NCBI GenBank assembly: GCA_038062955.1
Contig: JBBTWE010000001.1
Location: forward strand, 554,271-618,270
Reading direction: 5' to 3'
Length of the DNA: 64,000 bases
Origin: Patescibacteria group bacterium
GTDB lineage: Bacteria > Patescibacteriota > Minisyncoccia > Phycocordibacterales > BOKC01
Numbering within the stretch: the stretch's first letter is position 1; each line of letters starts with the position of its first letter. The notes below the pieces were generated by a model. The model ran no database searches. It saw only the letters and a program-made list of their open reading frames with translations, and was not told the origin of the DNA. Positions 7,563-63,583 of this stretch are shown here, piece after piece. A program made the position numbers and the translations under genes.

Positions 7563-7637
7563 TATATCGGTGCTTGACTTTCTATAACACTAGTAGTACC
7601 TTTTATCAAGGTAGTTCTTTAAAAATTGATCACCAAA

Positions 7638-7753
7638 TGAGACGAGCTTTAAGTGGCTTATATTAAGGTCGAAAATTTCTCATAACTTCGTTATTCGAAA
7701 TCTTTCGACATGATTTTTAAAGTGTAAAAATCAGCCTTTTAAAGCTCGTCTCA
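7638..7753. repeat. Perfect 14-bp inverted repeat (GAGACGAGCTTTAA / TTAAAGCTCGTCTC) enclosing an 88-bp spacer
   Basis: Direct reading. Spacer contains a CGACATGATTTTTAAAGTGTAAAAATCAG palindromic module related to repeats at 19988 and 39700. Abuts the GC-rich island. Confidence 0.7.
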
Positions 7754-7833
7754 TCCCCGAGATAGCGCACCCGTCTGCATCCCGCAGACAACCCGGATCA
7801 GTTCGCTGATCCATGTTCCAGGAGTTGGATCTC

Positions 7834-8430
7834 ATGCTCAACAAACTTCTCTCGGTCATGGTCTTCATGGCGTGGCTCGTTTGCCCCGCCGTGATCGCCC
7901 AGGCGCCGCATCTCCACGCGTTCGTGGATCCGGTGAACCAGTCGGTGAACACGATCAACGTCAGTTGGTTCGTCGAAACAGGAGAGCTCCTGATGTCGAC
8001 AGCCATCAGCCGTGCTCCAATGATGGAGTTCAACTGGAATGAAGAAGACGGCACCCACAACACGCTCACGACCGAAGTCAGCAACACCAAGGAATGGGTC
8101 TTCGAGATCACATCGATCACCGGCCTCGGAGCGTTCGAGAACGGCAAGATCGTCCCGCAAGGACAAGGCCAGGGTCCGGCTCAGAGTTCCTACACAACCT
8201 CATGGGTCGATTCGAATGGTTCAACATGGACAGTGCTCACGCTACGCACCTCAACCACTGCTGCAGGAAGGAAAGAAGAACTCCGAAACCACCTCGAACA
8301 AGTAAGGGAGATGCAATCAGCATTCCCCCCAAGACCCGTGACGCCACCGCCCGAACCGGAGCCGGAGGAAGCGTTCCTCTCCCCGCCACCCAGGTGGCAC
8401 CGATCCGAGGTACGACTCGCGCTTGTCTAG
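7834..8430 (+). CDS. Secreted Pro-rich hypothetical protein (about 60% GC)
   Basis: AGGAG RBS, then ATG at 7834. Signal peptide MLNKLLSVMVFMAWLVCPAVIAQA with AxA site. C-terminus PPRPVTPPPEPEPEE. GC about 60% against a 35% background. ORFs on other frames and the opposite strand overlap it. Confidence 0.5.
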   Translation: MLNKLLSVMVFMAWLVCPAVIAQAPHLHAFVDPVNQSVNTINVSWFVETGELLMSTAISRAPMMEFNWNEEDGTHNTLTTEVSNTKEWVFEITSITGLGAFENGKIVPQGQGQGPAQSSYTTSWVDSNGSTWTVLTLRTSTTAAGRKEELRNHLEQVREMQSAFPPRPVTPPPEPEPEEAFLSPPPRWHRSEVRLALV

Positions 8431-8520
8431 CCCCGATAAGTTGGGCTCAACAAGTGTGACCGAACCAACCTCGGAGGTGATCAACGTCTGTGCTTAGGCA
8501 ATTGTGCCTACAGCACCAAT

Positions 8521-8574
8521 CGACCTTCCAATCATATGTCACATCGTGGCAGATGAGTGGAAGGTCGTTTTTTT
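8521..8574 (+). terminator. Rho-independent terminator
   Basis: CGACCTTCCA ... TGGAAGGTCG followed by T8. Confidence 0.65.
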
Positions 8575-8646
8575 GTGCCAAACTTGCTTTAATATGCACT
8601 ATGTGTTAATTTTTATTGATAAAGCGTTAGGAAATAAAGATCAACC

Positions 8647-21366: not shown

Positions 21367-21552
21367 TTACCAGCTCGATTTTTTAACTCCAGGTATCATC
21401 CCCTCATTTGCTAATTCACGGAAACAGATTCTGCAAAGACCGAAATCTCTCATAAATCCCCTTCTGCGGCCACACTTGAAGCAACGCCTAATAACCCTCG
21501 AAGGATATTTTGGTGTCTTTTTTGCTTTTGCAATCAGGGCCTTTGTTGCCAT
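21367..21552 (-). CDS. rpsZ: 30S ribosomal protein S14 type Z (zinc-binding)
   Basis: 61 aa [12 protein letters not shown]...[26 protein letters not shown] track extension to 21660 runs into a MITE and is rejected. Confidence 0.85.
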
Positions 21553-21562
21553 TTTGGGTGAT

Positions 21563-21682
21563 AAACTCCATATTTGGCCAATTTCTTTGCTAAAACCTCC
21601 GCTTCTCACTCGCCGTATCATTAAATACGTCTCGTTTCGATGCTCAGTTTTATCAAACAACTTGTCTCAAATCTGGAAGTTT
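21563..21682. mobile_element. MITE-like mosaic element (family with GAACTTTCAGATTYG termini)
   Basis: Terminal inverted repeats AAACTCCATATTTGGCC / CAAATCTGGAAGTTT. Internal ACGTATTTAATGATACG-type palindrome module. Confidence 0.5.
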
Positions 21683-21834
21683 ATAATTTATAAGAAAGTT
21701 TTATATGAAAAAAGCTTTTAGAAGCTAGGTAAGAAGCATATCAAAAGCCCGAAAGAAGTCAAGAATGAGGGAGGAGGAAAGTTATAATGTTAAAAGTCCC
21801 TTATAAATAAAAAATGAGCAGTGGAATGGTTACC

Positions 21835-22195
21835 ACCGCTCTCGGTCAGCTTGGGATGTCTCACCCTTTCGCTGGGGTAGCTTGCATACCCGTGGATTTC
21901 TCCACCTGTTGTTTTCCTAATCCCCTACAATAGCAAGAATAGGACGCTAATGAAACATTCCTCGGGGGAACAACAGCAATTCCACACGCGGTCTGCGTTT
22001 CTGTACCTACTGGTCTGGAGGTCTCCACGCATATAGTTTTACCGAGAAATGCCGCTTCCACTAACCCGCTCGGAGAGCCTTCTTTTGTTCGCCTAGAAGG
22101 AATCCGTAGGAAGCCCGGAGGCCAGATTTCAGGCGATGATGGTACTGATTGTTGCACCTCCTTTTAAAAGGTTCATCCATTCAGAGTATACCATA
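21835..22195 (-). ncRNA. Candidate structured RNA of unknown identity (GC-rich, no ORF)
   Basis: About 360 nt at about 50% GC inside an AT-rich operon. No plausible ORF on either strand. GNRA-closed hairpins on the minus strand (GTGGA-GAAA-TCCAC, CTGTTGTT...AACAACAG). Loose resemblance to RNase P P10-P12 segments but no P4/CR-I/CR-V, so not called RNase P. Confidence 0.3.
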
Positions 22196-22247: not shown

Positions 22248-22796
22248 CTATTTAGCAATCTTCTTAAAAGGAAAACCAAGATAATCAAAGAATGATTTGG
22301 CTTCGTCTTTGTTGCGGGCAGTTGTAACAATTGTGATTGCAAGTCCAAAAACGTCTTTTAGATCTTCATCGGAAGTTTCCGGGAAAATAGTATGCTCTTT
22401 TATGCCGATAGTTAAATTACCAATCTCATCCAAAGATTTTGGTGAAAGTCCTCTAAAATCTTTTGATCGTGGCAAAGAAACATTTAATAATCGGTCCAAA
22501 AAATCAAACATTTTCGCTCCCCGAAGAGTTACTTGATATCCAACAACATCCCCTTCTCGAGACTTAAAGCTAGCAATAGAAATTTTAGCAGGACGTGGAG
22601 AAGGTTTTTGTCCTGTAATTTTTGCTAAACGGTCAGCAACCAGCTCAACTTTCTTTTTATCTTTGATAGAGCCAACACCAACGTTTAAAACCACTTTTAA
22701 AACTTTAGGAACCTGCATAGGATTTTTATATCCACTTATTCCTTTAAAATCCTTAAAAGATTTTTCTAATTTTTCTTTAACTAGTATTGTTGTCAT
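22248..22796 (-). CDS. rplE: 50S ribosomal protein L5
   Basis: Sequence. Confidence 0.9.
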   Translation of the reverse strand: MTTILVKEKLEKSFKDFKGISGYKNPMQVPKVLKVVLNVGVGSIKDKKKVELVADRLAKITGQKPSPRPAKISIASFKSREGDVVGYQVTLRGAKMFDFLDRLLNVSLPRSKDFRGLSPKSLDEIGNLTIGIKEHTIFPETSDEDLKDVFGLAITIVTTARNKDEAKSFFDYLGFPFKKIAK

Positions 22797-31100: not shown

Positions 31101-31108
31101 AGTGTTAT

Positions 31109-31261
31109 AACTTTCACATTTGGCCAATTACTTTGCTAAAATCTGCGCTTCGATGCTGATTTCTACATCATAGAAATCATGTCGGAAGATTTTTTATCAC
31201 GAAGTGATATAAAATTTCTGACTCAGTTTTATCAAAGAACTTGTCTCAAATCTGGAAGTTC
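31109..31261. mobile_element. MITE-like element immediately upstream of tuf
   Basis: TIR AACTTTCACATTTGGCC / CAAATCTGGAAGTTC. Contains the GAAATCATGTCGGAAGATTTTTTATCACGAAGTGATATAAAATTTC module shared with 50371 and 62280. Confidence 0.55.
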
Positions 31262-31394
31262 TAAGTTATTAGTAAATAATTATTAAAATTTTATCAAAAT
31301 TTAAATCAAATTGATTATTTTTGCTTACATACAAAAACAAAAATAGCGCAAAAGCGTTATCTGACATATTAACAAACATAATAAAAGAGTCAAC

Positions 31395-31459
31395 CCCGTA
31401 GTAGATTTTGGCATAGCAACTTCGTTGCGACAGCAACAATGCCAAAATCTACTACGGGG
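31395..31459. repeat. Long hairpin repeat (family B): CCCCGTAGTAGATTTTGGCAT ... ATGCCAAAATCTACTACGGGG
   Basis: Perfect 21-bp arms. Homologous copy at 63245-63301. The CTACTACGGG motif recurs at 9292, 36493, 54370 and 54466. Confidence 0.7.
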
Positions 31460-31487
31460 TCAAGGGATGATTTAGTTTTATAGGTTA

Positions 31488-46066: not shown

Positions 46067-46208
46067 AAACTTTCAGATTCCTGCCTGCCGGCAGGCAGGT
46101 GAGACAAGTTTTTTAATAAAACCGAGCACCGAAACGAGACGTATTACCTATACGATGAAGTGAGGCGCGGAGGTTTTAGTAAAAAAATTGGCCAAATATG
46201 GAAGTTCT
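46067..46208. mobile_element. MITE-like element abutting a pilin-like gene stop
   Basis: TIR AAACTTTCAGATTC / CCAAATATGGAAGTTC. Contains the 20-bp CCTGCCTGCCGGCAGGCAGG palindrome and a GACGTATTACCTATACG module. Confidence 0.55.
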
Positions 46209-50370: not shown

Positions 50371-50549
50371 GAACTCTCAAATTCGGTGCATACCTTTGTT
50401 ACTTCGCTCCGAGAGCCTCCCTCAACGTATTATTAAATACGTCTCGTTATGGTTCACCATAGAAATCATGTCGGAAGATTTTTTATCACGAAGTGATATA
50501 AAATTTCCGACTCGCTCGTACCTCGGTCTGCATCCGAATTTGAGAGTTC
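50371..50549. mobile_element. MITE-like element between pilin gene and pilC
   Basis: TIR GAACTCTCAAATTCGGTGCA / TGCATCCGAATTTGAGAGTTC (20 bp, one mismatch). Modules: CGCTCCGAGAGCCTCCCTCAACGTATTATTAAATACGTCTCG, and GAAATCATGTCGGAAGATTTTTTATCACGAAGTGATATAAAATTTCCGACTC. Confidence 0.65.
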
Positions 50550-51798: not shown

Positions 51799-51874
51799 GA
51801 ACTTTCAGATTCCTGCCTGCCGGCAGGCAGGTGAGACAAGTTTTAGTAAAAAAATTGGCCGAATCTGGAAGTTC
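51799..51874. mobile_element. Short MITE-like element between pilC and pilB
   Basis: TIR GAACTTTCAGATTC / GAATCTGGAAGTTC enclosing the CCTGCCTGCCGGCAGGCAGG palindrome. Confidence 0.55.
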
Positions 51875-62280: not shown

Positions 62281-62466
62281 AACTTTCACATTCGGCGTAT
62301 CTCTGCGTTACTTCGCTCCGAGCCTCCCTCAACGTATTATTAAATACGTCTCGGTACGGTTCTGATTTCTACACCATAGAAATCATGTCGGGAGATTTTT
62401 TATCACGAAGTGATATAAAATTTCCGACTCGCTCGCGCCTTGATCTGCATCCGAATCTGAAAGTTC
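62280..62466. mobile_element. MITE-like element overlapping rpsO stop
   Basis: TIR GAACTTTCACATTCGG / CCGAATCTGAAAGTTC. Module content near-identical to the 50371 copy. Confidence 0.65.
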
Positions 62467-63301: not shown

Positions 63302-63454
63302 TTGACTGGAACACTATAAATAATATACAATTGGGTACTAATGGTTCGCCCGCAAGGCGAGCCAAATTTTTTAGAAAAATAAGACGCAAAGCGACTATAT
63401 TTTTCTTAACCCTAAATAAGGTGTTCTAGAAATTAATCGCTTATTACAAAATTA

Positions 63455-63575
63455 GAACTTTCAGATTTGAGACAAGTTTGTTGGAAAAACTGAGCACCGA
63501 AACAAGACGTATTTAATAATACGATGAAGTGAGGAGCGGAAGTTTTTACGACAAAATTGGCCGAATGTGAAAGTT
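63455..63575. mobile_element. MITE-like element upstream of nusA
   Basis: TIR GAACTTTCAGATTTGAG / CCGAATGTGAAAGTT. GACGTATTTAATAATACG palindrome module. Confidence 0.6.
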
Positions 63576-63583
63576 ATAACATC

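Follow-up and report, generated by a model that had tools for sequence, protein, structure and literature searches.

What occupies the gap between rplE and rpsZ in this groundwater bacterium of the Patescibacteria (class Paceibacteria)? A sequence-only reading had singled out positions 21835-22195 of the 64,000-nt stretch of DNA analyzed here (the window) as an unassigned, structured segment of 50% GC with no acceptable open reading frame (ORF), lying inside an otherwise tightly packed operon, and had proposed that it could be a novel operon-embedded non-coding RNA (ncRNA), a regulatory leader or a degenerate intron. The composition was as described, with 49.9% GC against 38.8% for the whole window, in which equally GC-rich 361-nt windows make up only 3.6%. 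The motifs quoted are also all present on the minus strand: GTGGA-GAAA-TCCAC at 21905-21892, CCGAG/CTCGG at 22073-22069 and 22046-22042, CTGTTGTT at 21976-21969 with AACAACAG at 21913-21906, GCGAAAGGGTG at 21872-21862 and GGTGGTAACC at 21837-21828. The best 80 relatives of rplE are, all of them, metagenome-assembled genomes of Patescibacteria, and a protein identical to that of rplE is encoded by Hainich groundwater contigs and by the 704-kb NCBI contig CAYIIC010000001.1.

Another GC-rich island (56-61% GC in a genome of 39% GC) is located at 7750-8570 of the window. It has the look of foreign DNA, gave no Rfam match, and contains a 205-aa ORF (7813-8430, plus strand) whose N-terminus resembles a signal peptide and which matches nothing in Pfam; a palindrome (7636-7755) precedes it and a terminator (around 8520-8575) follows.

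Layout of the rplE-rpsZ gap

From the end of rplE (22248) to the start of rpsZ (21552) the gap measures 692 nt on the minus strand. Its features and those of its borders are as follows.

22248..22796, minus strand: rplE (ribosomal protein L5, 182 aa; ORF list and Pfam L5 domains), closing the upstream ribosomal-protein transcription unit
22185..22193, minus strand: putative extended -10 element TGGTATACT of the RNA gene, read by eye as a consensus match only
21806..22178, minus strand: predicted ncRNA of about 360-370 nt, its ends placed about 7 nt after the -10 element and at the end of the T-run
22081..22173, minus strand: 5' domain, about 93-95 nt, the most conserved part of the RNA, 97% identical between the two known variants and with an invariant run of 62 nt
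22155..22164, minus strand: perfect 10-nt Shine-Dalgarno-like stretch AAAGGAGGUG inside the 5' domain, invariant in both variants
21981..22080, minus strand: central variable region, 91% identical, with both 1-nt indels and no folding signal
21842..21980, minus strand: 3' domain, 92% identical, with an 8-bp helix and hairpins
21816..21841, minus strand: intrinsic terminator stem-loop, 97% identical, nine pairs of which six are G-C; T-run at 21815-21806
21735..21762, minus strand: predicted promoter of rpsZ-rpsH-rplF... (promoter scan): TTGACT, 16-nt spacer, TATGCT, with TG upstream
21707..21726, minus strand: conserved hairpin AGCUU-CUAA-AAGCU and U6, in the leader with which the rpsZ transcript would start
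21562..21689, no strand assigned: copy of a dispersed, palindromic (MITE-like) repeat of about 130 nt, outside the RNA gene
21367..21552, minus strand: rpsZ (type Z S14, 61 aa)

Read along the minus strand, rplE is thus followed by a promoter, the ORF-free body of about 360 nt, a terminator, 53 nt, the rpsZ promoter, the leader hairpin, the repeat and rpsZ itself. The terminator scan detected one intrinsic terminator after rplE, the only one in the gap and on the minus strand, with its stem at 21841-21816 followed by ATTTTTTATT; a G.U pair of this stem is A-U in the second variant (contig type L085), so that pairing is kept. At the other end, TGGTATACT is a perfect extended -10 located 55 nt past the rplE stop, and the candidate -35 (TTGAGT, 22215-22210) is weak and separated from it by a 19-nt spacer. 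The stretch TTATTATGGTATACT with this -10 is invariant in L085, while the surrounding 50 nt, ahead of the inferred start, reach only 78% identity. A promoter and an intrinsic terminator, both recognized as consensus signals, thus lie on one strand around an ORF-free body, which is the arrangement of a generic stand-alone ncRNA gene.

The second set of signals belongs to rpsZ. Conservation of its promoter (TTGACT-16-TATGCT) and of the leader hairpin AGCUUCUAAAAGCU-U6 is about 90% across the four related lineages considered below; the block is found at 21707-21762 of the window, at 2867-2927 of L095 and at about 220-275 of L106, and the promoter is also conserved in L085. The leader hairpin with its U-run may be a small attenuator or operator of the rpsZ-rpsH unit. 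Judging from these signals, rplE and rpsZ are separate predicted transcription units in this clade, and the element lies at an operon boundary rather than inside a tightly packed operon, as had been assumed. A 24-nt inverted repeat around the rpsZ promoter was also seen; one of its arms is missing in L085 and it was treated as chance.

Across Paceibacteria the distance between rplE and rpsZ varies from about 130 to 2600 nt, and several of the ORF-free gaps consist of palindromic DNA with folding z-scores below -5 on both strands. In the next relatives (76-77% identity in L5) rplE is followed by a convergent rplT-rpmI-infC. The element occupies, then, an inter-operon gap that is tolerant of insertions. 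As a separate observation, the junction is a hot spot throughout the loci collected (L001-L080, L103 and L105), some gaps holding ORFs and others palindromic filler, and the S10-spc cluster is physically split at this point in some lineages, those in which rplE faces rplT-rpmI-infC.

The repeat next to rpsZ is a subject of its own. It is MITE/REP-like, intergenic, found in either orientation and bounded by terminal inverted repeats AACTTCCAKATTTG, with at least six more copies in the window besides that at 21562-21689 (63449-63580, 46100-46202, 31104-31275, 50417-50448, 62316-62371 and 51839-51873) and with copies at 1140-1262, 1968-2088 and 2880-3000 of L085. The copy at 21562-21689 folds as one long hairpin (z = -4.4). 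Metagenome contigs of the lineage tend to break or misjoin at this repeat, and many of them break at the copy just upstream of rpsZ. Close to another copy, the mir-31 model picked up a hairpin at 31388-31464 (30 bits, E = 0.011, well under the gathering score), which is almost certainly not a microRNA but a bacterial palindrome. Pairing of the invariant CUGAAAUCUGG of the element with the ends of the repeat was considered and dropped, the duplex energies being no better than those of random windows.

Homologues, conservation and predicted folding

A second lineage carrying the element was found by exact look-up of the rpsZ protein (L085, L087, L088, L089 and L097, later also L100 and L101). 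Contigs of the L085 type are mutually identical and come from at least three independent assemblies. The L085 copy sits just upstream of rpsZ and is 91% identical to positions 20-558 of the gap, counting along the minus strand from the rplE stop. In three independent assemblies its other side is occupied not by rplE but by tRNA-His, at a distance of 10 nt, together with a Cob adenosyltransferase gene and PGK. Two side observations concern this tRNA: a half-tRNA-like fragment whose 5' part resembles tRNA-His is present at about 2170-2215 of L085, some 45 nt upstream of the intact gene (2257-2328), and the window contains, 15 nt past the rplE stop, the heptamer TAGCCAC of the tRNA-His 3' acceptor strand, which at only 7 nt may be a rearrangement scar or chance.

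These two variants, that of the window and that of L085, are the only ones in everything searched. No homologue was found by blastn or nhmmer in 80 Paceibacteria loci of GTDB species anchored on rplE, and searching 89 sources with covariance models built separately on the 5' and 3' domains brought up the two variants already known and no others. In the JGI metagenome collection, from which contigs of the closest relative L095 were also obtained, a 20-mer taken from the longest stretch of invariant positions matched only L085-type contigs plus one chance match. Nothing similar was found in collections of viral contigs, phages and plasmids. In the closest relative (L095/L096; 97% amino-acid identity in L5 and 96% in S8, four-fold sites 63-75%) the gap between rplE and rpsZ is only 176 nt long and contains a plain terminator and then the shared promoter and leader of rpsZ (61 nt aligned at 90% identity), without the element. 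The more distant L106 (S8 86%) has the promoter and leader as well, the 220 nt upstream being unrelated and the element absent from the site, and in L098 (L5 93%) a plain terminator follows rplE. Going by the sequences at hand, the element is accessory and lineage-restricted, present in two of four close Paceibacteria lineages.

Between the two variants the RNA body is 93.6% identical (350/374 columns), compared with 79-86% nucleotide identity for the adjacent ribosomal-protein genes, whose four-fold degenerate sites are 44-56% identical. Differences amount to 24/374 positions in the body versus 11/51 in the upstream flank (Fisher p = 0.001). The element is therefore conserved above the neutral rate and, because the body stands at 93.6% against about 50% for four-fold sites and 78% for the upstream flank, the comparison indicates strong selection on the predicted RNA sequence, even if the high identity could be due in part to recent transfer between lineages and not to selection.

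Predicted folding gave a less uniform picture, and the claim that the segment is structured could be upheld in part. The whole-element z-scores on the minus and plus strands were -3.5 and -0.8 for the window copy, and -0.8 and -0.2 for the L085 copy, which is overall no better folded than its shuffles, so that significance is reached in the window copy only. The 5' domain behaved alike in both (z = -2.3 in the window, -2.2 in L085, +0.2 antisense), with an identical predicted fold consisting of a three-way junction and a long irregular hairpin (22136-22089) capped by UCCG. The central 100 nt or so showed z-scores of 0.0 and +1.1 in the two variants, and the 3' domain -1.9 in the window and 0.0 in L085. 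This last domain contains the helix CUGUUGUU/AACAACAG, the GAAA-capped hairpin (21905-21892), a further hairpin (21891-21875) and a GGGUG/CAUCC hairpin (21866-21854). Among the pairings put forward by the sequence-only reading, the CCCC/GGGG and CCGAG/CTCGG ones are disrupted in L085, and no substitution falls in the GAAA hairpin or the 8-bp helix, so that these two are neither supported nor contradicted.

With just two variants to compare, the RNAalifold consensus, a structure fitted to both sequences, has 107 pairs with nine one-sided changes kept through G-U and zero compensatory ones. As the nine G-U changes work only on the minus strand, they support the strand assignment. When the minimum free energy structure of the window copy was considered, the 23 substitutions of L085 broke eight pairs against 8.3 under the null, i.e. 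chance level. The 5' domain and the local hairpins may plausibly fold as modeled; for the element as a whole, structure is only weakly supported.

We regard a stand-alone ncRNA gene of about 360 nt on the minus strand, transcribed from its own extended -10 promoter and ended by a strong intrinsic terminator, as the best explanation of these data, at about even odds of being correct. The terminator found on the minus strand only, the separate rpsZ promoter downstream, the invariance of the extended -10 in the only homologue, the better folding of the minus strand, the conservation of the body and the lack of coding potential and of matches to known families speak for it; independence from the neighboring genes is suggested by the replacement of rplE by tRNA-His in L085 and by the retention of the rpsZ promoter without the element in L095 and L106. 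On the opposite side are the existence of just two variants with no compensatory changes, the chance-level breakage of predicted pairs, the z-score of -0.8 in L085, and a promoter that is a consensus match with a poor -35. The patchy distribution fits a dispensable or selfish element as well as it does a functional gene.

The alternative that fares best, although we hold it to be rather unlikely, is a cis-acting role, in which the element would be a long structured 3' end or terminator module of the rplE unit, possibly an insulator or a regulated attenuator that sends extra transcription into rpsZ and its followers, much as the S10 leader of E. coli is attenuated under the control of L4. It carries the sole terminator after rplE, its distance to the -35 of the downstream rpsZ promoter is 53 nt in both lineages despite the different upstream neighbors, and the 45-nt spacer that connects it to this promoter is 89% conserved. 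Nevertheless, L095 manages with a plain 30-nt terminator and L106 has the rpsZ promoter without the element, in L085 the element follows a tRNA gene and not an mRNA, and no alternative antiterminator is evident next to the strong terminator. The E. coli S10 leader and the S8 operator at rplE resemble it in their location in the S10/spc cluster and in having a terminator just before a ribosomal-protein unit, and differ in that here rpsZ has an independent promoter, the element is dispensable in relatives and three to five times longer, and no ribosomal-protein leader family of Rfam matches it. A riboswitch or T-box was rejected along with such leaders, on account of the lack of Rfam matches and of the strong terminator and separate conserved promoter that precede rpsZ. 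The proposal of a regulatory leader is not supported, given that this promoter stands between the element and rpsZ and is kept by two close relatives devoid of the element.

We also hold it unlikely that mobile or foreign DNA left the element behind, as a relic or passenger that does nothing for the cell; recent spread or relocation between related lineages would then account for the high identity. Such an origin would agree with its presence in two of four close lineages and absence from the closest one, with the different left-hand context in each lineage, with the dispersed palindromic repeat on the right flank where assemblies break, and with the insertions that the rplE-rpsZ gap gathers throughout Paceibacteria; moreover, by our own estimate the 62-nt invariant run is not significantly longer than a uniform divergence of 9% would give (about P = 0.16). 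Yet the window has a single copy of the core (spacer positions 20-540, the count running along the minus strand from the rplE stop), the ends of the block show no terminal inverted or direct repeats nor mobile-element signatures, and the phage, plasmid and viral collections had nothing to offer. Multiple copies with terminal inverted repeats, as expected of a MITE/REP-like element, are a property of the adjacent 21562-21689 alone. Conservation is uneven, with 94% in the body and 78% just upstream (p = 0.001), and both the -10 and the terminator are intact in the two variants. This pattern is that expected from selection on a transcribed RNA, and argues against a neutral relic.

Known RNA families, RNase P and coding potential

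The element was compared with Rfam 15 at the gathering score, at E<=10 over 801 nt and at E<=10 with the 371-nt element alone, and the window was searched at E<=1. No family matched it at the gathering score or at E<=10 in either search, barring a match to rnk_leader in the 801-nt search that scored 22.7 bits against a gathering score of 50 and was discarded as noise; nor was there anything relevant in 20 related loci. The description of the segment as unassigned is in keeping with these searches. In the whole window, Rfam at E<=1 reported tmRNA, four tRNAs and chance matches only; the tmRNA (1731-2127) is a standard one-piece molecule scoring 116 bits, with the tag peptide ANNLVAKAKSIVSPYFGNEKLAFVYA. 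ARAGORN with introns allowed detected no tRNA, split tRNA or tmRNA in the element. A degenerate (group I) intron was dismissed, there being no host gene, no Rfam intron match and no split tRNA, and the element having its own predicted promoter and terminator.

Stand-alone bacterial ncRNA genes of 200-400 nt with a sigma-70-type promoter and an intrinsic terminator include 6S RNA, mycobacterial Ms1 and CsrB. Like them, the element has a promoter, a non-coding body and a Rho-independent terminator, is intergenic, 200-400 nt long, conserved and GC-enriched in an AT-rich genome; unlike them, it shows no match to their sequence or structure, does not form a single rod (6S, Ms1) and is not enriched in GGA (CsrB). 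A sponge of the CsrB/RsmZ type was in fact rejected on counts, with ten GGA against 7.1 +/- 2.2 in shuffles (P = 0.14) and two ANGGA against 1.9. Large RNAs such as raiA, OLE, ROOL and GOLLD, all of them in Rfam and several often adjoining tRNA genes, share with the element the signature of a GC-rich, ORF-free intergenic region; its own terminator, the tRNA-His neighbor in one lineage and the patchy distribution also recall them. The element differs from these families in matching none of them, in being much rarer (two variants) and in having no covariation support.

It is improbable that the element is the founding member of a new structured RNA class in Patescibacteria, i.e. a ribozyme or an RNP- or ribosome-associated RNA whose activity would reside in the invariant 5' domain and its perfect anti-16S (Shine-Dalgarno-like) sequence, or a radically rearranged RNase P RNA.

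More improbable still is an extremely divergent housekeeping RNA, for which RNase P RNA would be the obvious candidate by size. A length of about 360 nt, the GC enrichment, an rRNA-like conservation, GNRA-capped hairpins and the short echoes GAAAGGGUG and GGUGGUAACC already noticed by the sequence-only reading all fit, and no RNase P RNA match was obtained elsewhere in the 64-kb window, even at E<=1. Sub-threshold RNase P RNAs are known from CPR bacteria, lowered thresholds having been needed for detection in 10 of 35 circular genomes (Lui et al., 2021; PMC8172020). On the other hand, when the element was searched alone at E<=10, none of the RNase P models (RF00010, RF00011, archaeal, nuclear and type T) matched. 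In RNase P RNA, CR-I (GGAAAGUCC) and CR-V (ACAGAAnnnGGCUUA) form the long-range helix P4, with the 3' strand of P4 near the 3' end. CR-I and CR-V are absent here and no such strand lies near the 3' end; the sole ACAGAA is mid-molecule and reads AUAGAA in L085; the echoed motifs are in the wrong order, and with GAAAGGGUG some 40 nt before the 3' end the 3' half of a catalytic domain could not be accommodated. An essential gene such as that of RNase P RNA would be expected in every close relative. At the corresponding site L095 and L106 lack the element, and the 20-mer scan of the JGI metagenome collection retrieved no further copy. In addition, the window is 9% of the 704-kb contig and a conventional RNase P gene can sit elsewhere. 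The decision of the sequence-only reading not to call RNase P was a sound one.

As a protein-coding gene, decayed or very small, the element is scarcely credible, and this reading is largely refuted: ORFs of 98, 39 and 35 aa and the strong Shine-Dalgarno-like sequence at 22164-22155 are present, but the 98-aa frame is broken in L085 by two 1-nt indels, a comparison of the window with L085 reveals no bias towards synonymous change in any frame, the Shine-Dalgarno-like AAAGGAGGUG has no start codon at a usable distance other than an AUC opening a frame of six codons, and a pseudogene is not expected to outdo ribosomal-protein genes in conservation. The protein-level search against 1.84 billion representatives produced for the 98-aa ORF one marginal match (E = 5e-7) to a repetitive, low-complexity protein of 662 aa, and Pfam produced none; the only ORF equally long in both variants, of 39 aa, is antisense and has five amino-acid changes. 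The element is, on this comparative reading of its frames, non-coding, and the earlier finding of no acceptable ORF was borne out.

A candidate RNA gene at an operon boundary

Returning to the stand-alone ncRNA gene, the proposal of a novel operon-embedded ncRNA retains its core, namely a non-coding, Rfam-unknown, conserved body on the minus strand with its own predicted promoter and terminator, and loses only the embedding. The RNA gene, running from about 22178 to 21806, would lie between the units ...rplX-rplE and rpsZ-rpsH-rplF... Because no other terminator follows rplE, the terminator of the RNA gene would also end the rplE unit, and read-through from rplE would carry the RNA as a 3' tail. 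We infer that the gene is expressed and that its product may be a stable trans-acting RNA. The 5' domain, which hardly varies and contains AAAGGAGGUG, could be its functional core and possibly a protein- or ribosome-binding site; a Shine-Dalgarno-like stretch lacking a usable start codon would be here a lead and not evidence.

Orphan ncRNA genes are common in bacteria, and in that respect the significance of this one is modest: it is a real, unclassified, lineage-restricted ncRNA gene candidate, and not yet a discovery. To our knowledge, almost nothing has been established on regulatory or structural RNAs in Patescibacteria, a very large and uncultured group. The locus indicates that the textbook S10-spc cluster consists, in this clade, of two predicted units cut at the rplE-rpsZ junction, with a gap that is favored by extra DNA. 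At about 0.7 Mb, the genomes of these bacteria leave little DNA to spare, and a non-coding gene of 360 nt that is conserved above its ribosomal-protein neighbors in such a genome is therefore probably doing something.
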